Below, one piece after another: positions 9,080 through 26,589 of a DNA stretch of 64,000 bases; the first letter of the stretch is position 1; the number at the start of each line of letters is the position of its first letter. The position numbers and the translations under genes were made by a program. The notes under the pieces are model-generated. The model made no database searches. It worked only from the letters and a program-made list of their open reading frames with translations, and was not told where the DNA came from. This DNA is from Patescibacteria group bacterium (GTDB taxonomy: Bacteria > Patescibacteriota > UBA1384 > 2-12-FULL-50-11): NCBI GenBank assembly GCA_016861245.1, contig BOKZ01000001.1, positions 551,006 through 615,005 on the forward strand. Direction: 5' to 3'.

Positions 9080-10261
9080 ATGGCAGCAACATTCGAACGC
9101 ACAAAGCCGCACGTCAACGTTGGTACCATCGGTCACGTCGACCACGGTAAAACTACGTTAACGGCAGCTATCACAAACACACTCGCCGACAAGGGTTGGG
9201 CAGAGAAGAAGGCAGTCGATCAGATCGACAACGCCCCAGAGGAAAAGCAGCGCGGTATTACTATCGCGACGTATCACGTTGAGTACGAGTCAGAGAAACG
9301 ACACTACGCTCACGTCGACTGTCCGGGACACGCCGACTACGTTAAGAACATGATTACCGGTGCCGCTCAAATGGACGCCGCTATTCTCGTGGTGTCTGCT
9401 CCAGACGGTCCGATGCCACAAACTCGTGAGCACATTCTGCTTGCGAAGCAGGTTGGCGTTCCGTACATTGTTGTTTTCTTAAACAAGTGCGACCAAGTTT
9501 CTGATCCAGATCTTCTCGAGCTCGTTGAAGAAGAAGTTCGCGATCTTTTAAACAAGTACGAGTACCCAGGCAAAGACACACCAATTATTAAGGGCTCAGC
9601 TCTTAAGGCTATCGAAGGCGACGCCGACGCTAAGAAAGCAATCTTCGATCTTATCGAAGCGCTCGACTCTTACGTTCCAGAGCCAGTTCGCGAAACCGAC
9701 AAACCTTTCTTAATGCCAGTTGAAGACGTCTTCTCAATCAAGGGACGCGGCACAGTTGTTACCGGTCGTGTTGAGCGCGGTACCGTTAAAGTTGGTGAAG
9801 AAGTTGAAGTTGTCGGATTGAATGACACTAAGAAAACAGTTGTTACCGGAGTAGAAATGTTCCGCAAGCAGCTCGATTCTGGTCAAGCTGGCGATAACGT
9901 TGGTCTTCTTGTTCGTGGCTTAGAGCGCACAGATGTTGAGCGCGGCCAGGTTCTTTGTAAGCCAGGTTCGATTACTCCACACACCGAGTTCGAAGCTGAG
10001 TGTTACATCCTTAAAAAGGAAGAAGGCGGACGACACACACCGTTCACCAAGGGTTACAAGCCTCAGTTCTACTTCCGAACCACTGATGTGACCGGAGAAG
10101 TTGAGCTTCCAGGCGACGCCGAGATGGTTGTCCCAGGCGACACCACAACCTTCAAAGTTAAACTCATCCAGCCAATCGCGATGGAAGAGAAGCTCCGCTT
10201 CGCTATCCGCGAAGGTGGTAAGACGGTTGGTGCCGGAATTGTCACCAAAATTATCAAATAA
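9080..10261 (+). CDS. tuf: elongation factor Tu
   Basis: 393 aa; [18 protein letters not shown]; RBS AAAGGAG. Confidence 0.97.
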
Positions 10262-10283
10262 GTAGGGAAGGAATTGTACTTTA

Positions 10284-10616
10284 ATGGCCCAAAAGACCGC
10301 TCGCGAAGCTGCCAAATCCAGTATCCGCATCAAGCTTAAAGCGTACGATTACAGAGTAATTGATCGTTCCGCCAAGAAAATTATCGAGGCGGCCGAGCGG
10401 ACCGGTGCCATTATCGCCGGACCTATTCCGTTACCAACCGAGAAATCGATGGTAACGGTCAATCGCTCCACGTTTGTTCACAAGGATGCTCGTGAACAGT
10501 TCGAAATCCGTATTCACAAACGCATCATCGACGTCTTGGATCCAAATCCAAAAACCCTTGATGCCTTGATGAACCTCGATCTTCCAGCTGGTGTCGACAT
10601 CGAAATCAAGACATAA
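10284..10616 (+). CDS. rpsJ: 30S ribosomal protein S10
   Basis: 110 aa; IRIKLKAYD... S10 signature. Confidence 0.95.
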
Positions 10617-10641
10617 CAAGATTGATCTGAAACGCAAAAAG

Positions 10642-10665
10642 TCCGCTCTGGTGAGCGGGCTTTTT
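10642..10665 (+). terminator. intrinsic terminator after rpsJ
   Basis: hairpin TCCGCTC-TGGT-GAGCGGG followed by CTTTTTGT. Confidence 0.55.
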
Positions 10666-10702
10666 GTAATATAAACCATAAAAGTAGTAAAATACTGAGG
10701 AA

Positions 10703-13213
10703 ATGAAGGAAGCAAAGTCGCGAATAAAAATAAACAAACTGCTTGAACAAGCGGGCTGGCGATTTTTTGATAATGAAAAAGGACAAGCAAACATTTTGCT
10801 TGAACCGAATGTAAAACTTACCCAAAAAGATATTGACGCTTTTGGCGAGGATTTTGAATGTACCAAAGGCGGATTTATTGATTTTCTACTGCTTGATGAG
10901 CGAGGATTTCCATTTGTCGTTTTGGAAGCGAAAAAAGAGGAAAAAGACCCGCTCGACGGCAAGGAACAAGCGCGCCGCTATGCTAAATCTCAAAATGCCC
11001 GCTTTGTTTTGCTTTCAAACGGCAATCTTCACTATTTTTGGGATTTAGAGCGAGGCAATCCGGAAATTATCACAGAATTTCCGACACAAGAATCACTCTT
11101 GCACCGCTTGGAATTTACGCCGGACAACAAACGCCTCGCCGACAACAAGGTTGAAGAGGATTACATTGCCACGACGCAAAATCCAAATTTCAAAGATGAT
11201 CCTCGTTACCAAGATGAAGCGAAAAGAGCGCAATTTCTCTACGACGAGGGTTTGCGCATTTTGCGTCCGTATCAGCTTAAAGCTATCCAAGCCCTGCAAA
11301 GAAGTGCGGAAGCCGGAAACGACCGTTTTCTTTTTGAAATGGCAACTGGCACAGGCAAAACACTTGTATCTGGTGCCGTCATCAAACTATTTTTACGAAC
11401 CGGAAGTGCAAAAAGGATTTTGTTTTTGGTGGATCGCTTGGAACTTGAAGATCAGGCATACAAAAATTTCGTCCGTTACCTTAAAAACGACTACACGGCT
11501 GTTGTCTACAAGCAAAATCGCGATGATTGGAAAAAAGCGGACATCGTTATTTCAACCGTTCAAAGTCTTGCCTCGCAAGCCAAATACAAGAAACTTTTTT
11601 CGCCGACAGATTTTGATCTTATTATTTCCGACGAAGCGCACCGCTCAATCAGCGGAAACAGCCGCGCTGTCTTTGAATATTTTGTTGGCTATAAACTCGG
11701 ACTTACTGCAACGCCAAAAGATTATCTAAAAAATGTTGATCCGCAAAAACTTTCGTCAAAAGACCCGCGAGCGTGGGAGCGCAGACAACTTTTGGACACT
11801 TACACAACCTTTGGCTGTCCGAGCGGCGAACCAACATTCAGATACACTCTGCTTGATGGAGTAAAAGATGGCTACCTCATCAATCCTATCGCTGTTGACG
11901 CGCGCACCGACATCACAACAGAGCTTCTTTCGGAAAAGGGTTATGCCGTTATGGTGGAAAACGAGGAAGGCGAAGAAACCGAAGAAACTTTTTTCCAACG
12001 CGATTTTGAGAAAAAATTCTTTTCAGACAAAACGAATCAGGTGTTTTGCAAATCCATTGTTGAAAACGCCTTGAAAGACCCGATAAGCGGCGAGATGGGT
12101 AAAACGCTTATTTTTTGCGTGAGCCAAAAACACGCTTCAAAAATTACACAAACCTTAAACCAGATGGCGCACCAAGTATGGCCAGACAAATATAATTCTG
12201 ATTTTGCCGTTCAAATTACCTCAAACATTCAGGATTCCCAGCAAATGACGATCAATTTCGCCAACAATAATCTCAACGGACACACGAAATTTTTACCCGG
12301 CTACAAATCAAGCAAAACAAGGGTATGCGTTACCGTCGGCATGATGACGACCGGCTATGATTGTGAAGATATTTTGAACCTTGCCCTACTGCGTCCCGTC
12401 TTTTCGCCAACGGATTTTGTTCAGATGAAAGGACGCGGCACTCGCAAGTTCTTTTTTGAATACAAAAATGGAGACGGCGAAGTGCGAAAAGTAAATAAAG
12501 ATAAATTTAAGTTTTTCGATTTCTTCGCCAACTTTGAATACTTTGAAGAAAAGTTTGATTACGACGAGGCACTTCGCCTGCCGATTATCAAAAAGGGTGG
12601 AACCGGCGAGGGCGAAGGAGTGGGCGTTAATATTGATGAATTTGAAATTTTCGATCCCGATAAAATCAAGCAGCTGACCGAGATACCAATCGGCACCGAA
12701 GGAATGAAGGTTGACCGCAAGTTGTTTGAAGAAGCGAGAAAGAAAATCCAGAATGACGAACAAGTAAAAGAAGCAGTTAATCAAGAGCAATGGGAAAAAG
12801 CGGTAAAAATCTTGCGTGACAAATACGAAGACAAACCGCAATTATTTCTGAATCTTGAAAAAATACGCAAAAGCGAAAACCTTGACCGCCGTTTGTCGTG
12901 GCGTGAATTTTTGGAGCGGGTATTCGGCTTGATTGACGCTTTCAAATCCAAAGATGAAAAACTAGAAGAAGAAGTTGAGAAGTTTATCTCAATCTACAAA
13001 CCCGAAAGTAAATATGTGCCGTATATCAGAAATTACTTGAAGGCGTATGTTGCAGATGATCGTTTCCGCGAGATTATAAACAGCAAACATTTTGCCGAGC
13101 TGAATGTGTATCCGGGATTTTCCATGCAGGAATTTAAGGCACTCAACGGCTGGCGCGATACCGTGCCGGAATATGTAAAAGATTATGTGCCAGTCAATCA
13201 ATACATGAAATAA
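10703..13213 (+). CDS. hsdR: type I restriction enzyme R subunit (N-terminal PD-(D/E)xK nuclease + SF2 DEAH helicase)
   Basis: 836 aa; FIDFLLLDERGFPFVVLEAKK nuclease core; helicase motifs EMATGTGKT (I), ISDEAHRS (II), LTATP (III), QMKGRGTR (VI); tightly followed by hsdM. Confidence 0.85.
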   Translation: MKEAKSRIKINKLLEQAGWRFFDNEKGQANILLEPNVKLTQKDIDAFGEDFECTKGGFIDFLLLDERGFPFVVLEAKKEEKDPLDGKEQARRYAKSQNARFVLLSNGNLHYFWDLERGNPEIITEFPTQESLLHRLEFTPDNKRLADNKVEEDYIATTQNPNFKDDPRYQDEAKRAQFLYDEGLRILRPYQLKAIQALQRSAEAGNDRFLFEMATGTGKTLVSGAVIKLFLRTGSAKRILFLVDRLELEDQAYKNFVRYLKNDYTAVVYKQNRDDWKKADIVISTVQSLASQAKYKKLFSPTDFDLIISDEAHRSISGNSRAVFEYFVGYKLGLTATPKDYLKNVDPQKLSSKDPRAWERRQLLDTYTTFGCPSGEPTFRYTLLDGVKDGYLINPIAVDARTDITTELLSEKGYAVMVENEEGEETEETFFQRDFEKKFFSDKTNQVFCKSIVENALKDPISGEMGKTLIFCVSQKHASKITQTLNQMAHQVWPDKYNSDFAVQITSNIQDSQQMTINFANNNLNGHTKFLPGYKSSKTRVCVTVGMMTTGYDCEDILNLALLRPVFSPTDFVQMKGRGTRKFFFEYKNGDGEVRKVNKDKFKFFDFFANFEYFEEKFDYDEALRLPIIKKGGTGEGEGVGVNIDEFEIFDPDKIKQLTEIPIGTEGMKVDRKLFEEARKKIQNDEQVKEAVNQEQWEKAVKILRDKYEDKPQLFLNLEKIRKSENLDRRLSWREFLERVFGLIDAFKSKDEKLEEEVEKFISIYKPESKYVPYIRNYLKAYVADDRFREIINSKHFAELNVYPGFSMQEFKALNGWRDTVPEYVKDYVPVNQYMK

Positions 13214-13215
13214 CT

Positions 13216-15111
13216 ATGCTTGATCAACTCACAAAACGAAAAATTGACTCGGCCCGGCAAATTCTTGTCGGCAAAGTGCCTGACCCAAAGGCGCAAGTGG
13301 AGCAGATCACCACCGCGCTGGTTTACAAGTTCATGGATGATATGGACAAGGAATCGCAGGAGCTTGGCGGACAAACGCGATTTTTTGCAAACGGTTTTGA
13401 AAAATACAGCTGGACCAAACTCTTGGACAAACGGCTTTCCGGTGCCGAACGGCTTGACCTGTATGTGCAGGCCATTACGAATATGTCCAAGAATCCGCAC
13501 ATCCCCCAGCTTTTCAAAGATATTTTTAAGGGCGCGGCGTTGCCCTATAACGACGCTCAAACATTAAATTTGTTTCTGAAAGAAATTGAAGGATTTACTT
13601 TTGACCACAGCGAGGATTTGGGCGACGCCTATGAATACCTGCTGAATGTCGTCGGCACATCGGGGGAAGCCGGACAATTTCGCACGCCGCGCCACATCAT
13701 TGATTTTATCGTGGAAGTTGTTGCGCCAAAGAAAAATGAAACTATTTTAGACCCTGCTTGTGGCACGGCCGGATTTTTGATTTCCGCTTACAAACATATT
13801 TTACGCCAGCACGACGGCAAGCACGACCAAACGGGCGAGCCGACGAGCGCGGAAAAACGCCTCTCACCGGAAGAAAAGCAAAAGATGATGAGCAATTTTG
13901 TGGGCTACGATATTGATCCGGGAATGATGAGAATTGCCATCGTGAATATGTATTTGCACCATTTCCCCAATCCGAAAATATACGAATACGACACGCTGAC
14001 GTATGAGGATCGCTGGGACGATACCTTTGACGTCATTCTCGCCAATCCGCCGTTTATGACACCAAAGGGCGGGATTCGTCCCCACAAGCGTTTTTCCGTG
14101 CAAGCCACGCGCAGTGAAGTGTTGTTCGTTGATTATATTTTGGAGCACCTCAACATCAAAGGACGAGCCGGTATTATTGTCCCCGAAGGAGTAATTTTCA
14201 GAAATGATTCGGCATATAAGGAATTGCGGAAGAAATTGGTTGAAGACGGTTTGTATGCCGTTGTTTCCTTGCCGCAAGGTGTTTTTGCCAAACCCGGCGG
14301 CAAAGGAAATGTAAAAACGAGTATTCTCTTTTTTGATAATCAGCTTGCCAAAAAGAGCAATGAAATCCTGTTCGTAAAAGTAGAGAACGACGGCTTTGAT
14401 CTCGGCGCACAACGGCGAAAGATTGATAAAGATGACCTGCCGGAAGCTTTGGCTGTTTTGGATGCGTGGAAGAATGGCAAGAAATACGAGAGCGGCCTCG
14501 CTCTTTGGATAAAAAAAGAAAAAATCTCTGAAAGTGGAAATTACAGATTATCAGGCGAGTTTTATCGGGAAAATGTCAAAAGATTGCACCAGAAATGGCC
14601 GATGGTGGAATTGGGACAAGTTTTGGATTACGAACAGCCGACAAAATATATTGTTGAATCAGTTGACTACGATGACAAATATACTATTCCAGTTTTGACG
14701 GCGGGCAAGACATTTATTTTGGGATATACGAACGAAAAAAACGGGATATTCCCCCAAGAAAAATTGCCGGTGATTATTTTTGACGATTTCACTACTGCCT
14801 CAAAGTTTGTTGATTTCCCGTTCAAAGTAAAATCGTCAGCAATGAAGATTTTACTTGCGGATAAAAGTAAGACAAATATCAAGTTCCTTTTTCACTCAAT
14901 GCAGAGAATTGCTTTTACCGTCAACGAACACAAACGATATTGGATTTCCGAATACTCCAAAATAAAAATCCCGCTTCCTCCTTTGGACGTTCAAAACGAA
15001 ATTGTGGAGCAAATTGAAACAAAGGAAAATTCCATCAAGCACGCCAAAGAAATTATCAAAAATCTAGAGAGAGAGAGAGACGCTATTTTGGTCAGTCGCT
15101 TAGAAAATTAA
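13216..15111 (+). CDS. hsdM: type I R-M N6-adenine methyltransferase fused in frame to a half specificity subunit (HsdM-TRD1-conserved region)
   Basis: 631 aa; res 1-452 HsdM (FRTPRHII, LDPACGTAGFL motif I, LANPPF motif IV, C-terminal ISESGNYRLSGEFY signature); res 460-631 typical HsdS TRD start WPMVELGQVL... and conserved helix LPPLDVQNEIVEQIE...LERER. Confidence 0.85.
   Translation: MLDQLTKRKIDSARQILVGKVPDPKAQVEQITTALVYKFMDDMDKESQELGGQTRFFANGFEKYSWTKLLDKRLSGAERLDLYVQAITNMSKNPHIPQLFKDIFKGAALPYNDAQTLNLFLKEIEGFTFDHSEDLGDAYEYLLNVVGTSGEAGQFRTPRHIIDFIVEVVAPKKNETILDPACGTAGFLISAYKHILRQHDGKHDQTGEPTSAEKRLSPEEKQKMMSNFVGYDIDPGMMRIAIVNMYLHHFPNPKIYEYDTLTYEDRWDDTFDVILANPPFMTPKGGIRPHKRFSVQATRSEVLFVDYILEHLNIKGRAGIIVPEGVIFRNDSAYKELRKKLVEDGLYAVVSLPQGVFAKPGGKGNVKTSILFFDNQLAKKSNEILFVKVENDGFDLGAQRRKIDKDDLPEALAVLDAWKNGKKYESGLALWIKKEKISESGNYRLSGEFYRENVKRLHQKWPMVELGQVLDYEQPTKYIVESVDYDDKYTIPVLTAGKTFILGYTNEKNGIFPQEKLPVIIFDDFTTASKFVDFPFKVKSSAMKILLADKSKTNIKFLFHSMQRIAFTVNEHKRYWISEYSKIKIPLPPLDVQNEIVEQIETKENSIKHAKEIIKNLERERDAILVSRLEN
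15066..15080 (+). repeat. (AG)7 dinucleotide simple-sequence repeat inside the 3' end of hsdM-S, at the TRD1/TRD2 junction
   Basis: agagagagagagaga read directly; encodes LERER in frame 1; downstream hsdS' frame opens immediately after it. Confidence 0.9.
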
Positions 15112-15140
15112 AAGATGTTGAATGGGTAAAACTTGGCGAC

Positions 15141-15671
15141 GTGTGCAAAACAACATCGGGCGGTACGCCTCTAAAGCACAAGCGAGAATATTACGAAAAT
15201 GGCACAATTCCGTGGCTAAAGAGTGGTGAGGTTGATCAAGGTTTGATCTACAAATCAGAAGAAATGATAACAGAAAAAGGACTAAAAAATTCATCAGCAA
15301 AGATTTTCCCCGTAAATACTGTTTTGGTGGCAATGTATGGAGCAACGGCAGGAAAGGTTGGATTACTTAAATTTGAATCAACAACCAATCAGGCGGTCTG
15401 TGGGATTTTGCCGAACGACAAATTTATTCCAGAATTTTTGTATATGTATTTGAGAACAAAGACAGGCGAAATGGTGAAATTAAGCGGTGGTGGCGCACAG
15501 CCAAATATTTCCCAAACAATTATAAAGGCACTTGAAATTCCACTACCATCGATTGAAATCCAAAAACAGCTCGTCGCCGAAGCGGAAAAGGAAGAAGAAA
15601 TCATCGCCTCTAACCGCCGCCTCGTTGACCTTATGCAGCAAAAAATTGACGAGGCCCTATCTGATATTTAG
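15141..15671 (+). CDS. hsdS: type I R-M specificity subunit, second half (TRD2 + distal conserved region)
   Basis: GTG-start ORF in track; frame is actually open from 15069 (..LRKLKDVEWVKLGDVCKTTSGGTP = canonical HsdS TRD start) with no in-frame ATG; C-terminal LPSIEIQKQLVAEAEKEEEII... conserved coiled coil. Confidence 0.7.
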   Translation: MCKTTSGGTPLKHKREYYENGTIPWLKSGEVDQGLIYKSEEMITEKGLKNSSAKIFPVNTVLVAMYGATAGKVGLLKFESTTNQAVCGILPNDKFIPEFLYMYLRTKTGEMVKLSGGGAQPNISQTIIKALEIPLPSIEIQKQLVAEAEKEEEIIASNRRLVDLMQQKIDEALSDI

Positions 15672-15673
15672 CT

Positions 15674-18004
15674 ATGTTTGAGAAAGTATCAAAACTTAAA
15701 AAATTCGGGATATTCCGCGATTTCTCTTGGGGCGCAGACACACCAGACCTCGCGCGCTTTAACTTGATTTACGGCTGGAATAAGAGCGGGAAAACAACTT
15801 TTTCGCGCGCTTTTGTCGCTTGCGAGAAGAAAACAACGGAATTTGTCCAGTATCCCAAGGACGGCGAATTTGAAATAAAAACGAACGGCGGTTCAGCAAT
15901 TAACCATTCAAATTGCCATGGATGCACTCGGCAAATAAAGGTTTTTAATAAAGATTTTATTGAGGACAATGTTTCTTTTGATCCCACGAATCCAAGCCAA
16001 CCAATCGTCTATGTCAGCGAAGAAGACATCGAAAGCAGTAAAAAGTTGAAAGAGTTACAGGGTAAGGTTACGCCTTTGTCAGAAAAATACGAATCGGCCC
16101 AAAAGGATCGTCAAAAAAGTGAAAAAGCAGAAGATGATTTTAGAAAATCAACCGCCCGCACAATAAAAGATATTGTTGGCAATTTGAAAGTTAATGACAA
16201 ATACCGAGATTACGACAAAGGAAGCGTTAAAACAACGATTGAAAACGTCGGGATTGATAAATTTTCCAAACTTTCAGATGAAGAATTTGAAAAGAAAAAG
16301 AAATTTATAGGCGGCGATCCCCTTAACAAGCAAACCTCACCCCAACAATATGGGTTCTCTTTTTCTTATGACGGGAAAAGTTTGAAAAGTTTTTCCGAAG
16401 TATCTAGCGAGATTTCAAATATCCTCAAACGAAAAATTGTTGCCGAGACCATTGACCGCTTCAAGGACGATCCGGAACTAAATAAGTGGGCGCAACATGG
16501 TTTTGAATTGCACAAAACAAAAGATGAAAAGAAAAAATGCCTGTTTTGCCAAAATGAGTTTTCGGCCGGTTTCCTTAATTCGTTGTCAAAGCATTTCAGT
16601 AATGATTATGAGAAGCTACAAGGCGAGATAAGCTCTTTTATATCGGGCCTAGAAAATTTGAAGCGGGAAAAAATTACGGAAAAGAATCAAGGGCTTTATT
16701 CAGATTTCCAAGACAAATATAAAAATAGTGCAAAGGAGCTGAACAAAATTATCAACGAATTGATTGCGTGGGTGGATGAAGCGGTAAAAAAGCTGAAAGA
16801 AAAGTACGACAATCCGCTCTCGGATGTAAGTGATCCCGAATCGCCAAATGATTTTCCCGCTCAATACGATAAGAAAATTGACGAAATAAACGCGGTAATA
16901 AAAGAACACAATACCAAAGTAGATAATCACGAGCAGGAAGTCGGAAAAGCAAAGGAAGAATTGGAAAAACACCTTATTGCGGTTGCAATAGACGAGCAGG
17001 AATATTCAAAGTTAAAATCAGAGTTTGATAAAAGTATTGAAGCGGAAAAAGAGGCGAAAAAAGCAGTTGATGATAATACTCAAGAGATTTCCAAGCTGGA
17101 AAAAGAAACCTCAAACATAGGAAAGGCGGTTCAGAAAATAAATAAGCACCTCGAGGAATTTTTTGGTAGAAAGGAAATTCTGCTTGAACTGGACGATTCG
17201 AAAAAGGGCTACATTATCAAGCGCGACGGAGATGTGGCGCACAATCTTAGCGAAGGCGAAAAGAACGCTATCGCCTTTTCATACTTTATCGTCAAGACAC
17301 AGGAAAAAGGATTTAAGATCAAGGAAGGAATAATCGTAATTGACGATCCGATTTCCAGCTTTGATTCAAACTTTATTTACCACTGCTTTTCTCTGATAAA
17401 AAATCATTTCAAAGACGCAAAGCAGTTAATCGTTTCCACGCATAACTTTGAATTTTTCAATCTCGTCAAAGATTGGTTTGAGCAGAAAAATCGTAAAGTT
17501 GAAAGCGATAATAAGAAAATCGCTAATGAAGCAGACAAGAAGCCGGTTCCATGCGAGTTTTTCATGGTTGAAAATATCATCGAAAATGATAAACGATGTG
17601 CTTCGATTGTTCCGCTTGAAGAAACTTTGCGAAAATTCAAATCAGAATATCACTTCTTGTTTTCAAGATTGAATAAGTTTATTACAGAAGGTACGCCGGA
17701 CTACGCCGATTTTTACACTATCGGAAATATTGCGCGACGGTTTTTAGAGATTTACATAAATTTCAAAATACCGACAACAGGTGATTTGAAAAGTAGGGTT
17801 GACCAGCTTGATACAAAAACCGTCAGCGAAACTGAAAAAGATAAGGTGTATAAACTTATTCAAGAATTTTCGCACGGACTAGATCCCGCAAGCACAATCG
17901 AGCACAAAGATAAAAGTGAGATTCAAAATGCGATTAAAGTTTTAATGAAAATGGTTGAGGAATCAGACAAGAAGCATTTTGAATCTTTGCAAAGCAATCT
18001 ATGA
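15674..18004 (+). CDS. RloC-like ABC/Rad50-type ATPase with coiled-coil zinc hook and C-terminal putative anticodon-nuclease domain
   Basis: 776 aa; Walker A GWNKSGKTT, signature LSEGEK, Walker B IIVIDDPISSFD, H-loop VSTHN; about 400-aa K/E-rich coiled-coil insert with CxxC at res 81-84 and 289-292; after H-loop a 190-aa domain with ARRFLE (R-x3-E) and downstream SHG; 2 bp after hsdS'. Confidence 0.5.
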   Translation: MFEKVSKLKKFGIFRDFSWGADTPDLARFNLIYGWNKSGKTTFSRAFVACEKKTTEFVQYPKDGEFEIKTNGGSAINHSNCHGCTRQIKVFNKDFIEDNVSFDPTNPSQPIVYVSEEDIESSKKLKELQGKVTPLSEKYESAQKDRQKSEKAEDDFRKSTARTIKDIVGNLKVNDKYRDYDKGSVKTTIENVGIDKFSKLSDEEFEKKKKFIGGDPLNKQTSPQQYGFSFSYDGKSLKSFSEVSSEISNILKRKIVAETIDRFKDDPELNKWAQHGFELHKTKDEKKKCLFCQNEFSAGFLNSLSKHFSNDYEKLQGEISSFISGLENLKREKITEKNQGLYSDFQDKYKNSAKELNKIINELIAWVDEAVKKLKEKYDNPLSDVSDPESPNDFPAQYDKKIDEINAVIKEHNTKVDNHEQEVGKAKEELEKHLIAVAIDEQEYSKLKSEFDKSIEAEKEAKKAVDDNTQEISKLEKETSNIGKAVQKINKHLEEFFGRKEILLELDDSKKGYIIKRDGDVAHNLSEGEKNAIAFSYFIVKTQEKGFKIKEGIIVIDDPISSFDSNFIYHCFSLIKNHFKDAKQLIVSTHNFEFFNLVKDWFEQKNRKVESDNKKIANEADKKPVPCEFFMVENIIENDKRCASIVPLEETLRKFKSEYHFLFSRLNKFITEGTPDYADFYTIGNIARRFLEIYINFKIPTTGDLKSRVDQLDTKTVSETEKDKVYKLIQEFSHGLDPASTIEHKDKSEIQNAIKVLMKMVEESDKKHFESLQSNL

Positions 18005-18068
18005 CCTCCACCACCCAATTTGAGGTCCCGCCGTCCGAAAAAATCGCTAGTTTTGCTAGACTGAAACA

Positions 18069-18224
18069 ATGAATTGGGGTTGGTTTACCTCGAGCGGAGT
18101 CGAGTGGATGATAGTATTTGCAATTCTGGCTGTCGGGTTAGGAATAATTCTGGCCATGGCGATGAAAAATCCCGCACCAAATCTCTTTTCACCCAACCAA
18201 CCAAAGTACCTACCGTTTAGATAC
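18069..18224 (+). CDS. possible small membrane protein (51 aa)
   Basis: MNWGWFTSSGVEWMIVFAILAVGLGIILAMAM...; one TM helix; no strong RBS. Confidence 0.2.
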
Positions 18225-18324
18225 ATCAACCCTCAACACATCTAAGGCACCATATACGCTATAACTCATATTCTGTTTTTAACTAATTAGCATATGCTTT
18301 TTATTTACTGGTACAATAAGCCAA

Positions 18325-19008
18325 ATGTTCAAACTCTCCCCATCGGATTTTGCGTATATGTACCAGGACTGCAAGCTTTGCTATTGCCTGAAAATTAAGC
18401 ACAAGGTCAAACACCCAAGCATGCCGATGCCGGGGGTATTTTCGACGATGAACTCGATTATGCAAGGGGATATCGTCGGTAAAGATCTGCGCGACATCTC
18501 CCCAGATCTGCCGGTAGGGAAAGTGGTTAAACAAGAGGGTTTTGTAAAATCCAAGATGATCGACGGCACGTCGGTGTATATCGGCGGCAAATACGATCTT
18601 CTAGTGGAATTGCCGGATGGGAGCTATATGATTGTGGATTTGAAGATCTCCAAGCCCAGCGACGAAAAGAGCGATATGTACAAAAGCCAGCTTTGGAGCT
18701 ACAAATACGCCCTGGAAAATCCGGAGAGCGGCGAGCCGGTAAATATCTCAAAATTAGCCTTGCTAATTTTTTATCCGGAGTCTGTGGTATTCGAAAACGG
18801 TGTGGCGAAACTTGCTTTTCCGCCACAATGGATAGAAGTAGAATATAATCACAACGAATTTTTAGAATTTATGAAAGAAGTGGATACGTTGCTGGCCGGC
18901 CCGTTACCTGCCGAAAACGAGAATTGCCAGTGGTGTAAGTATCGTCACACCGGCGAACTGCTTACACATAGCACTTCAGAAAACGTGGCTGAAACAAGCC
19001 CATTTTAA
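18325..19008 (+). CDS. PD-(D/E)xK nuclease of the RecB/Cas4-like family with a 4-Cys (Fe-S-type) cluster
   Basis: 227 aa; N-terminal CKLCYC, motif II GKYDLLVEL, motif III IVDLKISK, QxxxY (KSQLWSYKY), C-terminal CQWCKY. Confidence 0.45.
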   Translation: MFKLSPSDFAYMYQDCKLCYCLKIKHKVKHPSMPMPGVFSTMNSIMQGDIVGKDLRDISPDLPVGKVVKQEGFVKSKMIDGTSVYIGGKYDLLVELPDGSYMIVDLKISKPSDEKSDMYKSQLWSYKYALENPESGEPVNISKLALLIFYPESVVFENGVAKLAFPPQWIEVEYNHNEFLEFMKEVDTLLAGPLPAENENCQWCKYRHTGELLTHSTSENVAETSPF

Positions 19009-19032
19009 AAATTATGTTATAAAAACACGGAA

Positions 19033-19434
19033 ATGAGTAAGCCATCTAGTCCAGTAAGTAGTGTAACAGAGGAAATTCAAAGTCGGCTTCACAGGTTACT
19101 ACACGAAGCAGCGCAACAAAGTTCAGACAGTAGCTTCCAACAGTGCGTGAATAATCACTTAATTAATTACATTCAAAGTCGAAGCGGTTGGAAATCAATT
19201 GGAGAAAACGGTTTTTCCTACAAAAATGGGATCAAAGTTTTTGTTGATTCTTATCGATCTTCAAACGCTTTCGAGAATGTAGTGAATATAGGGAAAGAGA
19301 TACTGCGCGCTGAGCTTGAGGATTTGATTAAAGAATCGGCCAACAAAGGTGATGAAATAAGACGTGCGCTAAAAGAATTCGAGAGTAAAGATTGGGATTT
19401 TGCGTTTATTAGGCGGAAAATAAGCGAAGAATGA
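19033..19434 (+). CDS. hypothetical protein (133 aa)
   Basis: ORF with no recognisable motif, same strand and close spacing to neighbours. Confidence 0.45.
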   Translation: MSKPSSPVSSVTEEIQSRLHRLLHEAAQQSSDSSFQQCVNNHLINYIQSRSGWKSIGENGFSYKNGIKVFVDSYRSSNAFENVVNIGKEILRAELEDLIKESANKGDEIRRALKEFESKDWDFAFIRRKISEE

Positions 19435-19464
19435 GTCGTTCGGGTATGTTCCTGTAAGCAGACG

Positions 19465-20718
19465 ATGAAAATACTTCCAAACCGTAAACAATTATTATCA
19501 ACGGTGGTGAAAACTCTGTTAGCGCTGTCTGCCGTAGTTGCTGTGTTAATTTCTTTTACGTATTCGATAGTTTATACCGTTATCGGTGCGCTAATAGTTG
19601 TTGGATATATTGTGTATCGAAATTTCAACTTTAAACCCATCCAGTTCAATTTTTATAAAGTAAACGGTTGGTTTGCTAGAAACTTATTGTTTGTAATCCC
19701 GATAATCGTAGTGTTACTACTGGCTAACATCTCGTTGTTTGTGTTTGGGTACCTGAAATCGAATAAAGAGGTTGTAGTTTGTACTGAAGCAGACGTAAAA
19801 AACGCCGCTAAATCCGTTGTACTAATTGAGGGAGAAGACGGGACAGGGTCGGGATTTTTTGTTGATAGTAATTACATTGTAACTAATAACCATGTAATTG
19901 ATCACAATACGATTACAAAAATTCAGTCTGATAACGGCGATATAACTGTCGGCTCAAGGGTGGTCGCTACTGATTCGTTGAGAGACATCGCCTTAATTGA
20001 GGTTGTGAACTTTTTGGAAGTACCGAAACTAACACAATCTGAAAAACCAGCTGACGTTCTAAACGAGGTCTACGCGATTGGCTATCCGTTTGGTCGAAAT
20101 TTAACTATTTCAAGAGGTATAGTATCGGCAATAACTAAAGATGATTACGACGATCGCCAGTACATTCAAACAGATGCCGCCATAATCCCAGGCAATTCAG
20201 GCGGACCGCTCGTGAATAAATGCGGGGAGGTGATTGGTATGAATACTCAAACACTACGAGGTCAAGAAAATCTAGGATACGCAATTGAGTACTCGCAGTT
20301 AAGTACAAGAATTGCCAGCATGTTAGATGCTGCAAAATCGGCAACAATTCAGGAAATCGAGCAGAATTACCCATCTGAGCAAGCTGAGGTTGTAGCGAAA
20401 TACTACTCAACACTGAGCGCCGGCCAGCTAGAAACTGCATACGACTACTATTCTTTTGCACGGAAAGCAAAGCTGCCGTTTGAGAACTGGAAAACTGGGC
20501 TGGAACGGACGATATTTATCCGGTTGGTATCTGTTGAGCAGACGCAGAAAAATAACACTATAAGAGTACATTTTTACGCAACCGAGACTTCTAAAGAAGA
20601 TGCCTGGGAATGGAAAACGGGAGAATTTGAGGGAACTTGGACGTTACTGCGTGAAGACGGGTTGTGGAAAATGAACGAATCCAATATTAAGGATATAACG
20701 AAACCAAACGCGACGTAA
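19465..20718 (+). CDS. membrane-anchored trypsin-like (S1/DegP-family) serine protease with C-terminal NTF2/SnoaL-like domain
   Basis: 417 aa; 3 N-terminal TM helices; catalytic triad contexts TNNHVIDH (His), DIALIEV (Asp), GNSGGPL (Ser). Confidence 0.75.
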   Translation: MKILPNRKQLLSTVVKTLLALSAVVAVLISFTYSIVYTVIGALIVVGYIVYRNFNFKPIQFNFYKVNGWFARNLLFVIPIIVVLLLANISLFVFGYLKSNKEVVVCTEADVKNAAKSVVLIEGEDGTGSGFFVDSNYIVTNNHVIDHNTITKIQSDNGDITVGSRVVATDSLRDIALIEVVNFLEVPKLTQSEKPADVLNEVYAIGYPFGRNLTISRGIVSAITKDDYDDRQYIQTDAAIIPGNSGGPLVNKCGEVIGMNTQTLRGQENLGYAIEYSQLSTRIASMLDAAKSATIQEIEQNYPSEQAEVVAKYYSTLSAGQLETAYDYYSFARKAKLPFENWKTGLERTIFIRLVSVEQTQKNNTIRVHFYATETSKEDAWEWKTGEFEGTWTLLREDGLWKMNESNIKDITKPNAT

Positions 20719-20719
20719 T

Positions 20720-21357
20720 TCTTTAATATCTTGCCTGAAGATACTTCAAAGAGTATTATTTCCGTGTCCTGGCTTCGGTCAGGCGAATCCTACATGGAGG
20801 CACAAAAGATGAATGGTTCGAACGTTCTTGAACGCACTCACGCTGAGCCTAGCTCTTCGTTGGTGCGAGACATCTATTCGATTCAACCCGGGTCGACGGA
20901 ACTGCTCAACGAGGGGCAGGCCCGAAAGCGACTCACCGACACCCATACGATGCGAGCCCGAGAGCTCTGCCCTGCCCAGGGCAAGAGAGCGGCCGGTGGA
21001 TTCCTCCAGCGAATCTTCGGCTAACGGGCGACCAACGACGTGGGAGTTGTTCGTCGCTTTGAAGCGACAGTTCGAGAGACCGAAGAAACGTTTCCCGATG
21101 AATTTTCCGTGGGTTTGTGGATGTGGCAAAGCCGGCTTCCCCGGCTGTAAAGACCGCGAGCACTTCTGCGAGCGCGTCTATCTAGCACTACTCGACTACC
21201 ACCAACATCAGGAAACGAAATCCCGGAATCTCTGCTACTTCGTTGACGGCGGCGAACAGCTTCTGCGTGTCGACCAATTCAGTGCCAGGCGTATGCAGCT
21301 TCTCGAGGCAGACCTCGAGAAAGCTGAAACGATCTTGCGCCGAATGCTATCCGACAA
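20720..21357 (+). other. GC-rich, hairpin-dense block without a convincing ORF (candidate structured RNA or degraded foreign DNA); possible 89-aa Cys-rich ORF 21098..21367
   Basis: GC clearly higher than flanks; ORFs open in several frames on both strands with R/S-rich low-complexity translations; many local palindromes (GTTCGAAC, GAACGTTC, GCCCT-GCCC-AGGGC, AGCCGG-CTTCC-CCGGCT). Confidence 0.3.
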
Positions 21358-21385
21358 CCCCGCTTAACCACAGCGGGGCTTTTCT
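21358..21385 (+). terminator. intrinsic terminator
   Basis: CCCCGCT-TAACCAC-AGCGGGG followed by CTTTTCTT. Confidence 0.55.
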
Positions 21386-21421
21386 TGACAATAGAGCCTA
21401 AAGCACGTTGACTGTATAAAA

Positions 21422-22270
21422 ATGGGTGGAGGGAGAATGCACGAACAAATTAGGCCGCAGGCACACGTAGCGACGTGGGCGATCTCAGTATTAATGGTGA
21501 TATTAGCTGCGACGCTTGGCACAACTAACGATATTACCAATGCAACAGAAGTCTATACGGCTCCGGACGGTACGAAGAAATACTTTACGTACGAGGGGAG
21601 CGGCGGATTTAAGGCGCCAGACGCTTGTTTAAAACCGACGGCAGAGCAGCAGGTGCAAATTGATCAAATTACAGTACTCAAAAAAGAGTTATTGGTGTTA
21701 CAAGAGAAAGATACTTCGCAATTTACTACTGAAGAGAAAGCCGCTCACGAAGCCAAGATTCAGGAATTACTAACTAAAATTAAAACAGCGGCTGGTACCG
21801 TGTCGACAGTAAAACCAGGGCCGACCGCAGAATGTAAGGCAGCGGTGGTGGCCGGCAATATTAAACTAATGACTGCACAGCTAGAGCAAACAAAATCAAA
21901 ACTAATTGTGAGCGTGGACAATGTGAGCGCCAAAATAATAAAAGTTGAAGAAGCGATCGCAAAAATTAAGCCGACAACCGAGAATCAACCGATTCTAACT
22001 GCAATTACTGCTGATATTAACGCCGCAAAGCTTAACCTAGTCATCCTTTCCGATTTTCTAACCAAAACACAATCTCAAATGGAATCGTTTTTAACGCTTT
22101 CAAAAACCGATCCTAACAAAGCGTACGATTCAATTAGAACCTTTAGGGTTGGCGGAGATAATCTGAAGGCTACAAAGGCAAGCGAAGGAATAATTAGCGC
22201 GTTTACGAGCCTGAAAGCCAATATCGAGCGCTTAATCGAACTTACGGAGGGTAGTAATGGAAATATCTAA
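21422..22270 (+). CDS. hypothetical secreted/membrane-anchored coiled-coil protein
   Basis: 282 aa; N-terminal TM/signal segment VATWAISVLMVILAATLG; alternative ATG at 21437; GGAGGG nearby. Confidence 0.5.
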   Translation: MGGGRMHEQIRPQAHVATWAISVLMVILAATLGTTNDITNATEVYTAPDGTKKYFTYEGSGGFKAPDACLKPTAEQQVQIDQITVLKKELLVLQEKDTSQFTTEEKAAHEAKIQELLTKIKTAAGTVSTVKPGPTAECKAAVVAGNIKLMTAQLEQTKSKLIVSVDNVSAKIIKVEEAIAKIKPTTENQPILTAITADINAAKLNLVILSDFLTKTQSQMESFLTLSKTDPNKAYDSIRTFRVGGDNLKATKASEGIISAFTSLKANIERLIELTEGSNGNI

Positions 22271-22538
22271 TTCACCAGTACCGGCATCGCAGCCGCACTC
22301 AAAAGTCTGGTTAGTGGTGACGCTCGTAGTGTCAGTAGTTGCAGCAGGTTTAATTTGGTACTTCTTGTATCCGAAAGCAGAGGAGTTAAATACGCAGACG
22401 CCAGAGTCCCAAAAAACCGTCAAAAATGCTGTTGATGAGACGCTAGTTGCAGCAAAAAACGATCTGAATACCGTTAATGTCGAGGAGTTAAAAGTTGCGG
22501 TCGACGAGTTAAAATCCACCCTTGACGCTTTTGAATAA
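22257..22538 (+). CDS. small single-pass membrane protein (93 aa)
   Basis: RBS GGAGGG 6 nt upstream; TM LVVTLVVSVVAAGLIWYFL. Confidence 0.5.
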   Translation: MEISNSPVPASQPHSKVWLVVTLVVSVVAAGLIWYFLYPKAEELNTQTPESQKTVKNAVDETLVAAKNDLNTVNVEELKVAVDELKSTLDAFE

Positions 22539-22676
22539 TAAAATGCCCCGACGGTGCGGGGCTTAGAGATCGGCGTAGATCTCGGGTGGGACAACGAGGT
22601 CGAGCTTGTTTCGTTCGATCGCTTCGGCGATAATTTGCTCTCGGGTCATTCTGTAAACAACCATTCTTGTTGCGAT

Positions 22677-23024
22677 TCAGCGGCAGATCGTCATGGCCGG
22701 TGAGAGACCGAGACTCATCATTACAACGGCGCTAGCTGCAAGGAGTTTTACGATCTCACCGTGGTTAATCGAACGTAGCTCGATTAAAAGATCGTCTACT
22801 GTTCTATACAGAGCCATCGCCTCGTGCTCGATACAAAACCGGCAAGCAGTGCGCCCGTGTGGCTGAAAGATCATATGCGGTTGCGAATGAATGGGGCAAT
22901 AGATTCCTTGTTCGAGCGCGCATGATACACACGAGAACGGCGACTGCGAGAGATCAACTTGCTCGCAGATTTCGGGAATAGCAACGACGATATCTGGTTC
23001 TTTCTGACAATACCGACAAACCAT
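22677..23024 (-). CDS. Cys-rich putative zinc-binding protein with hydrophobic C-terminus
   Basis: 115 aa; CRYCQ...CVSC...C...CRFC; RBS GGAG 7 nt before ATG on minus strand; a further 28-codon ORF (22563..22649, minus) follows its stop. Confidence 0.45.
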   Translation of the reverse strand: MVCRYCQKEPDIVVAIPEICEQVDLSQSPFSCVSCALEQGIYCPIHSQPHMIFQPHGRTACRFCIEHEAMALYRTVDDLLIELRSINHGEIVKLLAASAVVMMSLGLSPAMTICR

Positions 23025-23086
23025 AATGTAACTCCAAGGTGCTGATGCGCATTTTATCGAAAAATAGTTGATTTACAATTTCGTCA

Positions 23087-23115
23087 TTGACCAGCACTTG
23101 GTACGAGGGTATGGT
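23087..23115 (+). promoter_or_regulatory. candidate promoter (TTGACC-17-TATGGT) for the repeat protein gene
   Basis: hexamers read in the divergent intergenic region. Confidence 0.25.
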
Positions 23116-23142
23116 CTATAAAAGTGTAGAAGAGGAGGTAAT

Positions 23143-23700
23143 ATGACATCTATAGCAGAAGATATGAAGAACGCTGTCGTAGCAACAGTGAAGGGAACGG
23201 GGGAAATTGGAGAAGCGTTAGTCGAGGCTGTTAGTGGTGTTGCAACAGCAGTTCTAGGCGGCGTAAAGGACGTTAGTCAAGAGGCGATTGCCCTACCTGC
23301 TGAGCTAGTAAAGTCAGCACTAACTGCAGTATCCGATGCGGGCGTGGCTGGAGTTAAGGCAACAGAACACGTTGTAAACGGTGTTGTCTCTTCTGTCTCA
23401 AACAGCGTTGTAAGTACAGAAGAAGGTGTGGGAGCTGTTGCTCAAACTTCTATTAAAGTTGCCCATGATACCGGTGCAGACTTGGGTGAGAGCGCTGTTA
23501 GTATCGTTAGAGGAGCAATCGAAGGAGTAAAGCGAACTGGCGGCGATGTAGGCTCAGCTACCAAGGCTGCTGTCACTGGTGTGATAGACGGTGCAGGCGA
23601 AATCGGCGAGACCGCAGTGGAAACTGTTTCAGGTGCCGTTTCAAGTGGCGTAGATGGTACTAAAGATATTGTTGAAAGCGTATTGTCTTCAAAAAAGTAA
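23143..23700 (+). CDS. Ala/Gly/Val-rich repetitive protein (phasin/LEA-like, internal duplication)
   Basis: 185 aa; RBS GAGGAGG; N-terminal VKGTGEIGEALVEAVSGVATAVLGGVKDV repeated at C-terminus as IDGAGEIGETAVETVSGAVSSGVDGTKDIV. Confidence 0.6.
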   Translation: MTSIAEDMKNAVVATVKGTGEIGEALVEAVSGVATAVLGGVKDVSQEAIALPAELVKSALTAVSDAGVAGVKATEHVVNGVVSSVSNSVVSTEEGVGAVAQTSIKVAHDTGADLGESAVSIVRGAIEGVKRTGGDVGSATKAAVTGVIDGAGEIGETAVETVSGAVSSGVDGTKDIVESVLSSKK

Positions 23701-23717
23701 TTCGTTCTTAAAATTAT

Positions 23718-24116
23718 ATGAACGGTTACGTAGAGAATATCGAACTTGAGACACAACAGAATACCAACTTTCGCAAAGTTGTTTATACCGGCAAGCATTC
23801 TCAGTTGGTGCTGATGAGTCTGTTACCTGGTGAGGAAATCGGAGAAGAAGTTCACGAGGACGGCGATCAATTTTTCCGGGTTGATGACGGCGTCGGCAAG
23901 GTTGTAATTGATGGTGTAGAAACAGAACTGACTGACGGGAGCGCTGTGGTTGTTCCGGCTGGTGCTACTCATAACGTTATCAACACTTCGGAAACCGAGC
24001 CATTGAAACTGTATACGATATATAGCCCTCCGCACCACCGCGAAGGAGTTGTCCACGTGACCAAAAACGACTCCGAAAACGATAACGAAGAGTTCGACGG
24101 CATAACTACGGAATAA
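23718..24116 (+). CDS. cupin-domain protein
   Basis: 132 aa; HEDGDQFFRV...VVVPAGATHNVIN two-motif cupin pattern. Confidence 0.65.
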   Translation: MNGYVENIELETQQNTNFRKVVYTGKHSQLVLMSLLPGEEIGEEVHEDGDQFFRVDDGVGKVVIDGVETELTDGSAVVVPAGATHNVINTSETEPLKLYTIYSPPHHREGVVHVTKNDSENDNEEFDGITTE

Positions 24117-24124
24117 AAATTGCA

Positions 24125-24646
24125 ATGAAGATCGAAACAATCGTCTTTGGAGGCGGCTGTTTCTGGTGCACTGAAGCAATTTTTAAACAGCTCCAAGGCG
24201 TACAATCGATTGAGTCAGGATACGCCGGTGGAACTACGTTAGATCCTTCGTACGAAAATATCGGCGATCACGCCGAGGTGATAAAAATAGAATACGATCC
24301 AAAAGAGATAAAGTTCGAAGATCTACTAACTGTATTTTTTGCAACACATGACCCGACAACTTTAAATCGGCAGGGCGCTGATGTGGGGACGCAGTACCGA
24401 TCGGTTGTCTTGTGTTCAAACGAAAAGCAAAGAGATATTGCGATAAAATTTATCGATAACTTAAATAATCAAACTGAGTTTGGCGACCCGATCGTAACAG
24501 AGGTTGAGATGTTAAAGAAATTTTTTCTAGCCGAAGTGTATCACCAAAATTATTACTCTAATAATCCAAATTCCGTGTATTGCCAAGTTGTGATCAACCC
24601 AAAACTTAAAAAAGTAAAAGAAAAATTTGCAAAATTGCTGTTATAA
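24125..24646 (+). CDS. msrA: peptide methionine sulfoxide reductase A
   Basis: 173 aa; GGGCFWCTEAIF active-site motif. Confidence 0.9.
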   Translation: MKIETIVFGGGCFWCTEAIFKQLQGVQSIESGYAGGTTLDPSYENIGDHAEVIKIEYDPKEIKFEDLLTVFFATHDPTTLNRQGADVGTQYRSVVLCSNEKQRDIAIKFIDNLNNQTEFGDPIVTEVEMLKKFFLAEVYHQNYYSNNPNSVYCQVVINPKLKKVKEKFAKLLL

Positions 24647-24668
24647 AAAAGCGGCCCTTACGGGCCGG
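24645..24668 (-). terminator. hairpin terminator between convergent genes (T-run on minus strand)
   Basis: AAAAAA-GCGGCCC-TTAC-GGGCCG; reads as CGGCCCGTAAGGGCCGCTTTTTT on minus strand. Confidence 0.45.
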
Positions 24669-25104
24669 GATCGAGAAACGAGATCAAGAAGATTTCGAAC
24701 GGATCGGAAGCGCTGCGAGCGTTCGGTCGAACATAGCTCGCGTACCCGAGTGCCAGAAGCGTCGCTCGGATGTTATGTGAGAGCTTCCAGTTCTCCAGCG
24801 GTTTGTTGAAAACAGTGTCGAGCGAGCGACCGACTGCTTCGTCGTCGATCTCATGGTCATCAACCTGCCTGAACAATAGTTTAACGTCGTCGCTGTCGCA
24901 CTTTTCGATGTACGGCGCCGCCGCATCACGGTAGAGTTCTGGGTCGTAATCCAGAAATCTGCCAAGCATCGGCACAAATCGAGGTCCGGTCAGGTGTCCG
25001 CAGCGTTCCATGGCGCGTTCGAACATAATGAGTCGGTCGACGTCCGAAAAGCACGGACCAAGTGTCGAGGTGAATAAATCGATGTCGTGTTGTGTAAGGT
25101 CCAT
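24658..25104 (-). CDS. hypothetical protein (148 aa) downstream of the KAS-III-like gene
   Basis: ATG with GGAGGG RBS on minus strand (start at internal Met MDLTQHDIDLF of the 182-aa track ORF). Confidence 0.5.
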   Translation of the reverse strand: MDLTQHDIDLFTSTLGPCFSDVDRLIMFERAMERCGHLTGPRFVPMLGRFLDYDPELYRDAAAPYIEKCDSDDVKLLFRQVDDHEIDDEAVGRSLDTVFNKPLENWKLSHNIRATLLALGYASYVRPNARSASDPFEIFLISFLDPGP

Positions 25105-25196
25105 TGTTACCCTCCGCGTGCAAGAGAATATACTCGATTTTACCAAGAAAATCAACGATTTTACTACAAAAAAACCCGCCGTGAGGCGGGGAGGTC

Positions 25197-26297: not shown

Positions 26298-26508
26298 GAG
26301 GCTTCTCCTTATTGTTCAGGTTCGAACCTGTAGTGCAATTTTGGCACGATCTTCAAAAGATATCCAGGTATTGCAACAGATAAAAAAATTCAGTATTTTT
26401 CCAAAACGGTCGCCAGGACCGTCAAGTGGGCCAAGAGCGGCTGCTTGGCATAGTTGCCACTTGCTCCGGCGGGTTGCGGCGCCGCAATCGCCGCGCCCGC
26501 TTATTTTC

Positions 26509-26537: not shown

Positions 26538-26589
26538 TGGTAAGCATATTCAACCTGTTACGAGTTGAGTGTTAAATATTTATTTCTAA

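Follow-up and report, generated by a model that had tools for sequence, protein, structure and literature searches.

We analysed a 64,000-nucleotide (nt) stretch of DNA from a Patescibacteria group bacterium (GenBank assembly GCA_016861245.1, contig BOKZ01000001.1, positions 551,006 to 615,005; hereafter the window), in which a run of seven AG dinucleotides, (AG)7, lies within a restriction-modification (R-M) gene whose methylase (M) and specificity (S) parts are fused. A reading made earlier from the letters alone (the sequence-only reading) had proposed that this run is a candidate phase-variable switch at the point where two target-recognition domains (TRDs) meet. Judged by its domain content, the locus is a Type I R-M operon in the order hsdR, hsdMS and an rloC-like gene, all on the forward strand.

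The first gene, hsdR (10703-13213, +), encodes an 836-residue restriction/translocase subunit that is EcoAI-like (type IB-like). As in Type I systems, HsdR is encoded by its own gene and combines a helicase/translocase core with a nuclease region at the N terminus; it has domain matches to ResIII (E = 4e-39), DEAD and HSDR_N_2 and a PADLOC match to REase_I (E = 7e-57). It resembles the R subunit of the EcoAI/FtnUII family (E = 4e-71) at a score under the family (equivalog) cutoff. The second gene begins with the open reading frame (ORF) referred to here as ORF1 (13216-15111, +), which encodes 631 residues comprising HsdM, the first TRD (TRD1) and the central conserved helix, a form that we call M-half-S. 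ORF1 matched HsdM_N, N6_Mtase (residues 133-452, E = 4e-52) and a single Methylase_S domain (residues 460-619), and PADLOC assigned it MTase_I (E = 3e-91) plus Specificity_I. The NPPF catalytic motif of an HsdM-type N6-adenine methylase is present as ILANPPFM. TRD1 occupies approximately residues 460-585 (14593-14970, +). Downstream of the AG tract (15066-15079, +) lie a tail of ten codons and a TAA that is read in the (AG)7 and (AG)4 frame only (15079-15111, +) and, in another frame, the second TRD (TRD2) with the distal conserved helix (15081-15671, +; 196 codons followed by TAG; Methylase_S, E = 6e-30). The third gene (15674-18004, +) encodes a 776-residue RloC-like candidate anticodon nuclease, recognised by its AAA_13 match and motif set. 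A separate hsdM is absent from the locus. HsdM and HsdS are thus in one polypeptide and HsdR is encoded separately, an M-S fusion arrangement that has been termed 'Type IMS' (Roberts et al. 2012; PMC3510504).

The three genes are tightly packed. The TAA stop of hsdR lies 2 nt before the ATG of hsdMS (TAActATG, 13211-13218), and the ATG of the rloC-like gene lies 2 nt past the TRD2 stop (TAGctATG, 15669-15676). Since both junctions have the form stop-CT-ATG and are without a Shine-Dalgarno-like sequence, they suggest termination-reinitiation coupling along hsdR-hsdMS-rloC. A scan of 10200-19500 for promoters and terminators found sites at numbers not above the count in shuffled sequence.

The AG tract and the reading frame

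The tract has the sequence AGAGAGAGAGAGAG at 15066-15079 and is followed by an A at 15080. It was the sole dinucleotide run of more than four units in the 64-kb window, the three others having four units each, and none of 100 dinucleotide-preserving shuffles yielded a comparable run. In ORF1 the tract is translated CTA GAG AGA GAG AGA (L-E-R-E-R), after which ten sense codons (DAILVSRLEN) lead to the TAA at 15109-15111. In the fusion frame the nucleotides of this tail (15079-15111) read RYFGQSLRKLK, and the frame beyond the tract reads RYFGQSLRKLKDVEWVKLGDVCKTTSGG... and is stop-free until 15671.

The sequence-only reading had described an HsdM-TRD1 fusion with an LERER-encoding tract, the only one of its length in the window, 11 codons before the stop, and each of these points was borne out by the domain matches, the repeat scan and the translation. 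Its account of the downstream hsdS' half needed amendment in two details. The TRD2 frame is open beyond the repeat as described, but it opens at 15018 rather than 15069. It has no ATG, again as described, and no ATG, GTG or TTG occurs between 15018 and 15140; its sole canonical start is a GTG at 15141, which is the last codon of the conserved EWVKLGDV motif and not downstream of it. The claim that deletion of one AG unit joins TRD2 to HsdM-TRD1 was confirmed when the gene was rebuilt in silico: removing one unit, i.e. (AG)6, gave a single ORF with the predicted junction, encoding an 817-residue HsdM-HsdS fusion. More generally, 3, 6 or 9 units gave a continuous ORF of 815-819 residues reading ...IIKNLERERRYFGQSLRKLKDVEWVKLGDVCKTTSGG..., 4, 7 or 10 units gave the DAILVSRLEN tail, and 5, 8 or 11 units gave a seven-residue tail, TLFWSVA. 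By sequence inspection only, the site was without a canonical slippery heptamer or a long A/T run by which programmed ribosomal frameshifting or transcriptional slippage might bypass the break.

The S part restored in this way aligned end to end with EcoR124II HsdS (7bst_A, E = 5e-74; residues 464-794 against 19-366). After frame restoration the protein contains the two TRDs and two conserved helices of a Type I S subunit, whereas the current frame joins TRD1 to one helix. TRD1 was identical to 7bst_A at 75 of 125 aligned positions (60%), and TRD2 showed 31% identity to the C-terminal TRD of EcoR124II and also aligned to the M. jannaschii S protein (1yf2).

Could the true sequence be (AG)6, with a single uninterrupted ORF? 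Repeats can be miscalled, and the in-frame state is the norm of the family. The window and two Logan run assemblies, DRR258782 and DRR258780, however, agreed exactly, with 100% identity over 4988 and 4956 bases, (AG)7 included. This concordance speaks against an assembly error in the tract length, which the sequence-only reading had named as a possible refutation. A 14-nt dinucleotide run is also well inside short-read accuracy, and (AG)7 was found in differing alleles from four unrelated projects, with (AG)4 and (AG)5 in others. We consider a sequencing or assembly artefact extremely improbable.

Tract-length variation among related loci

Genome and metagenome collections supplied 160 loci related to the gene, and exact protein look-up added a further 11. 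A search with the restored 817-residue protein returned mostly proteins of 800-860 residues at 100% coverage, many of them from metagenome-assembled genomes (MAGs) of Patescibacteria, and a minority of 627-650 residues at 76% coverage. Because the best matches are mostly of the longer class, and because 98 of 121 closed ORFs among relatives that lack the tract are at least 780 residues long, the full fusion is, on these lengths, the normal state of the family. Two junction types were seen, NLERERRYFGQSLRKL..EWV with an AG run and DGARQVVENYKP.I.IDPEW without one. Among the proteins returned, junction peptides occurred in all three frames: LERERRYFGQ in the fused form, LERERDAIL... and LERDAIL..., both running to a stop, and LERETLFWPVT followed directly by a stop.

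We compared 30 alleles with the AG-type junction, the window included. The gene was in frame in 23, of which 18 were (AG)6; the other five had an interrupted tract (L004, L013) or a variant junction (L006, L093, L127). The remaining seven (23%) were out of frame, each solely through its number of AG units, and between them they covered both alternative frames: five had (AG)7 (the window, L012, L163, L165 and L166), one had (AG)5 (L164) and one had (AG)4 (L167). In tblastn searches each of the seven fell into exactly two segments that met at the tract, and no further disruption was seen. TRD2 was stop-free for 176-200 residues in these alleles, and for 145 residues until the contig end in L165. 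Their TRD1/TRD2 combinations differ, which indicates that the out-of-frame alleles are separate events. Both TRDs are shared between L163, with (AG)7, and L169, with (AG)6; the two alleles come from different populations and show 89.8% nucleotide identity across 2.49 kb. The sequence-only reading had attributed switching to slipped-strand mispairing and had pointed to the same locus in related assemblies as a check; the occurrence of (AG)4, 5, 6 and 7 at the same position, with the frame tracking unit number exactly, favours that proposal.

The 121 tract-less ORFs served as a control. Besides the 98 full-length genes, 15 encoded proteins of approximately 620-660 residues and eight were broken at scattered positions, and none of the 121 was split at the junction with TRD2 in another frame. 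Junction splits in 7 of 30 tract-bearing alleles and 0 of 121 tract-less ones differ significantly (Fisher p = 6.6e-6, or 1.8e-4 with two doubtful cases counted against). L098, with one unit fewer than L006 and L093, was considered as an eighth out-of-frame allele and left out of the comparison; tblastn showed a second frameshift inside its TRD1, and it is probably a decayed gene. Viral contigs scanned for the tract and its flank (GAGAGAGACGNTATTTTGG) gave no matches.

The same alleles bear on whether the out-of-frame state might simply be a split specificity subunit, in which TRD2 is reinitiated at GTG 15141 and pairs with M-TRD1, so that the asymmetric target is retained and the organisation of the subunit changes rather than its target. 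The TRD2 frame is intact, the GTG lies 30 nt past the ORF1 stop, and the 2-nt spacing of the operon genes without Shine-Dalgarno sequences suggests that reinitiation occurs. A start at this GTG would nevertheless cut the conserved N-terminal EWVKLGD, and the Pfam match starts upstream of it. No start is common to the out-of-frame alleles, for which gene callers chose starts 18-57 nt past the ORF1 stop, giving products of 147-186 residues. The equivalent half in NgoAV, hsdS2, yields no active protein (PMC9577141), and the resulting complex would hold one M per S. Taken together, these points make a split subunit very unlikely.

Two further relatives showed stops elsewhere in the gene. L149 has an in-frame stop within TRD2 at approximately 2938-2943 (NWIEG-stop-YPIVGSNG), with the frame intact beyond it, and L038, from a Gracilibacteria MAG, has very early apparent stops in hsdM. 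Recoding of UGA (genetic code 25), and not disruption of the genes, may lie behind both cases.

Codon usage at the junction

Codon usage was analysed in 27 alleles, with the background taken from the portion of these genes that encodes the M domain; the M domains of the compared alleles are 57-95% identical to that of the window. ERER was encoded as GAG AGA GAG AGA in 25 of the 27, and synonymous change was seen in none, both exceptions being non-synonymous (GGG in L004 and AAA in L013). In the background only 28% of Glu residues use GAG and only 17% of Arg residues use AGA, so that the joint expectation for the string is 0.0023. The preceding Leu codon was CTA or TTA in 24 of 27 alleles (CTT or CTC otherwise), which lengthens the tract; CTA alone was used in 18 of 27, compared to 2.8% of Leu codons gene-wide. 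Flanking codons varied synonymously at Arg (CGC, CGA, CGT and CGG), Gly (GGC and GGT), Gln (CAA and CAG) and later Lys and Glu positions. In the +1 frame, in which the 10-codon tail is read, the stop was at the same place in 26 of 27 alleles. The codon that creates this stop was TTA, CTA or ATA in 26 of 27, although xTA encodes only 20% of Leu residues and 11% of Ile residues in the background. These patterns are suggestive, but not proof, of selection on both the nucleotide repeat and the out-of-frame stop, since the alleles are related, the junction may spread through recombination and several neighbouring codons are also invariant.

These observations have to be weighed against non-adaptive decay, in which the AG run would be no more than a mutation-prone way of encoding ERER and (AG)7 an ordinary inactivating frameshift, heading for loss or tolerated, with no switching in use and no half-S enzyme. 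R-M genes are often disrupted, as the eight broken genes among the 121 tract-less relatives and the two frameshifts of L098 illustrate; the tract is short; both run assemblies are uniform at (AG)7; and a fused version from this strain was not found in the protein collection. Decay does not readily account for the intact M, TRD1 and TRD2 of all seven clean out-of-frame alleles, for a tract of minority codons without synonymous change across alleles whose M domains have diverged so far, or for out-of-frame alleles accounting for 23% of those with the tract and falling into both alternative frames. The +1-frame tail moreover gives a normal helix length and its stop survives changes between TTA, CTA and ATA, and engineered fusions of M to half of S are active (PMC6158711). 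We therefore regard decay as unlikely.

The truncated product

Beyond the IPLP motif, the (AG)7 frame encodes 43 residues and the (AG)5 frame 39. By comparison, the distal helix has 40 residues in the window itself and a median of 44 in 115 full-length relatives, so the 10-residue tail appears to bring the terminal helix to normal length. Natural HsdM-HsdS fusions with a single TRD, of 618-664 residues, were present in 13 of the fetched loci (L008, L023, L034, L039, L088, L094, L110, L124, L133, L137, L142, L144 and L157). They have a normal distal helix, often ending in VWGE directly before the stop, and are followed by unrelated genes. From these sequences, one-TRD 'Type IMS' proteins are a regular minority of the family.

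L172 (5001-6884; also L173) looks like a lineage fixed in the half-S state. Its M-TRD1 gene ends in ERDNILTKRLET before the stop, hsdR is intact alongside and there is no TRD2 downstream. The AG run has degenerated (GAGGGAGAAAGG), and the contig, of 2.77 Mb, is circular by name. We considered the tail of this protein (P0114/L172; ERDNILTKRLET and stop) as proof of amino-acid-level selection on the +1 frame and rejected it, as a likeness to the fusion-frame sequence is still recognisable in its nucleotides (YFNQKIRNL after a stop) and the tail therefore fails to tell the two frames apart. The normal helix length, the natural single-TRD fusions and the apparently fixed half-S gene of L172 together make the truncated M-half-S form look viable.

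Comparison with known systems

The closest precedent is NgoAV of Neisseria gonorrhoeae, in which a poly-G tract toggles between truncated and fused HsdS, with the targets GCAN8TGC and GCAN7STCA, and in which hsdS2 alone is inactive (Adamczyk-Poplawska et al. 2011; PMC9577141). Both loci have a simple repeat at the TRD1/TRD2 boundary that separates a truncated one-TRD protein from a fusion one repeat unit shorter. The truncated NgoAV protein dimerises and reads a (quasi)palindromic site, and the fused form reads an asymmetric one. NgoAV differs in that hsdS stands as its own gene, carries a mononucleotide G tract and is accompanied by a free HsdM, whereas the window has an AG dinucleotide tract within a fused hsdM-hsdS; because of this placement, the truncated product here carries its own methylase. 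Switching and specificities were shown experimentally for NgoAV and are inferred for the window.

Simple-sequence repeats (SSRs) between TRDs are common, occurring in 7.8% of the hsdS genes in REBASE in a survey with a threshold of at least five dinucleotide units (Atack et al., FASEB J 2020; PMC7383803). Measured by the criteria of that survey, the window repeat lies inside an ORF and between two TRD-coding regions, has a unit that is not a multiple of three and seven dinucleotide units against the threshold of five, and varies in unit number (4, 5, 6 and 7) across otherwise conserved gene copies of different populations. Like the surveyed repeats, it lies between the TRDs just past the coiled-coil region and is predicted to switch between full-length and truncated products rather than on and off. 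The survey differs in handling hsdS, hsdM and hsdR as separate genes (the word 'fusion' has no occurrences in the paper) and in drawing its worked examples mostly from host-adapted pathogens.

The two predicted products of the window have the architectures of engineered Type IMS proteins. In a study of S. aureus CC398-1, the two-TRD fusion MSfus read the parental target ACCN5RTGA and the dimerising one-TRD fusion M½Sfus read the palindrome ACCN5GGT (Bower et al. 2018; PMC6158711). Each fusion was active as a methylase and, together with HsdR, as an endonuclease (PMC6158711). Those laboratory constructs are fixed in a single state, whereas here the states are natural and linked by a mutable repeat.

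A further likeness is to the type IC enzymes EcoR124I and EcoR124II. ERERRYFGQSL aligns with RKKQYNYYRDQL of EcoR124II HsdS, just past the TAEL repeats of the central helix, placing the ERER tract a few residues beyond the repeats whose copy number sets spacer length. The EcoR124 repeat, in contrast, is a 12-bp in-frame unit; unequal crossing-over there lengthens the spacer from N6 to N7 without truncation.

A candidate slippage-driven switch

Collectively, these results suggest that the locus is a well-supported candidate contingency locus, and we think it probable that (AG)7 is the current setting of a slippage-driven switch between a two-TRD fusion and an M-half-S enzyme. Slipped-strand mispairing would alter the number of AG units and so set the reading frame past the tract. 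A number divisible by three, most commonly (AG)6, would give the fusion of about 817 residues in the order M-TRD1-helix-TRD2-helix, from which an asymmetric bipartite target is expected. One unit more, (AG)7 or (AG)4, would give the 631-residue M-TRD1-helix protein with the 10-residue tail, which, by analogy with natural and engineered half-S proteins, would dimerise through its terminal helix into an M2S1-equivalent enzyme acting on a palindrome of two TRD1 half-sites. (AG)5 or (AG)8 would lead into the third frame and its shorter, seven-residue tail. The window would be in the half-S state, with TRD2 silent or poorly expressed because it has no conserved start codon. That the two states have two target specificities is predicted from the precedents of NgoAV and the engineered S. 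aureus M-S and M-half-S fusions; we infer it, as we do reversibility within a population, the activity of both forms and the specificities themselves.

The target of the half-S state can be narrowed further. EcoR124I recognises GAAN6RTCG, and we take the N-terminal TRD of EcoR124 to be the reader of the GAA half-site. Since TRD1 of the window is 60% identical to this TRD, the (AG)7-state target is probably of the GAA-N(x)-TTC type. Populations with (AG)7 would then be expected to show a palindromic GAA-type methylation motif and populations with (AG)6 an asymmetric motif; for relatives with (AG)6 and the same TRDs, such as L171, a bipartite motif with the GAA half in common would be predicted.

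Several points weigh against this interpretation. Both Logan contigs pass straight through the tract at (AG)7 with no contig break, and no 817-residue version of this strain's protein was found in the protein collection, so there is no sign of an assemblable 'on' subpopulation. Six or seven dinucleotide units make a short tract. Recombination that spreads a junction module, and not selection for mutability, could partly explain the conservation of the tract, and several neighbouring codons (TAT, TTT, CTT, AGA, GAT and GTT) are likewise invariant. Assembly of the fused state is a further difficulty, since a two-TRD M-S fusion supplies a single M for each S; the EcoKI MS fusion required extra free HsdM in vitro (PMC3510504), and the window locus has no free hsdM. 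An AlphaFold2 model of ORF1, built on a 20-sequence alignment, drew helix 590-630 as continuous but was too weak to be used, with a mean predicted local distance difference test score (pLDDT) of 54.6, a predicted template-modelling score (pTM) of 0.33 and pLDDT values under 50 in the tail.

The mechanism of an SSR between TRDs is known and common, and in this respect the finding is not categorically new. Relative to the literature that we found, three aspects are new: the repeat lies in a natural M-S fusion, where slippage would turn one natural enzyme form into a second; the family occurs mainly in uncultivated Patescibacteria from environmental metagenomes; and codon usage suggests that both the AG run and the stop in the alternative frame have been preserved. 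Within the limited literature covered, searches on phase variation of M-S fusions, or on phase variation in Patescibacteria, found nothing specific. Work on phase variation in Type I specificity genes has dealt almost exclusively with host-adapted pathogens, and the same logic appears here in a natural HsdM-HsdS fusion family common among ultra-small uncultivated Patescibacteria. In the literature found, the MSfus and M½Sfus architectures are known as laboratory constructs only, and this family offers natural counterparts. It provides natural material for asking how M-S fusions solve the problem of needing two methylases per site, and whether slippage serves environmental symbionts as a means of varying their defence or their epigenetic state.

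The RloC-like gene

RloC proteins are defined by ABC-ATPase motifs, a coiled-coil CXXC zinc hook and a C-terminal Arg-X3-Glu-X36-52-His, often with Ser before the His (PMC2610378). The product of 15674-18004 fits this published motif definition, with Walker A at residues 34-41, CLFC at 289-292 as a zinc-hook candidate, LSEGE at 525 and R688-X3-E692-X41-S733-H734, making it a candidate anticodon nuclease. It matched AAA_13 (E = 1.6e-133) and PADLOC PDC-S06 (E = 1e-174), with a weak match to PrrC. Linkage of RloC to a Type I locus has been termed rare (PMC2610378). In two of the relatives, L170 and L171, an RloC-like gene also follows the fused hsdMS.

Since its ATG lies 2 nt past the TRD2 stop without a ribosome-binding site, translation of the RloC-like protein may depend on the frame set by the AG tract. 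A broader proposal can be put forward only tentatively, and we find it rather unlikely: that the tract is a selected three-state contingency element across a natural M-S fusion clade of Patescibacteria and their gene-transfer partners, gating the RloC-like gene as well. The case for a selected element would lie in its rare-codon build and in the dual-coded stretch that follows, which would be read as RYFGQSLRKL when fused and, in the +1 frame, as a tail that completes the helix and ends at a fixed stop. On this proposal the RloC-like gene would be translationally coupled solely in alleles read through in the fusion frame. If this were true, restriction specificity and an abortive-infection tRNase would be switched together whenever the tract slipped once.

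Genomic surroundings

The operon lies in a block of approximately 16 kb (10617-26589) between rpsJ/S10 (10284-10616) and rplC/L3 (26590-27171), which splits the normally contiguous S10 operon. In addition to hsdR, hsdMS and the RloC-like gene, the block encodes a PD-(D/E)XK/Cas4-like protein, a trypsin-like protease, a cupin, MsrA, a FabH-like protein and several unassigned ORFs. The PD-(D/E)XK nuclease, of 227 residues, is encoded just past the RloC-like gene (18325-19008, +) and has weak Cas4-like matches (PADLOC E = 2e-6); a 133-residue ORF without a family match follows it. In the related locus L166, the R-M genes lie upstream of tuf-rpsJ-rplC, and those three genes are contiguous.

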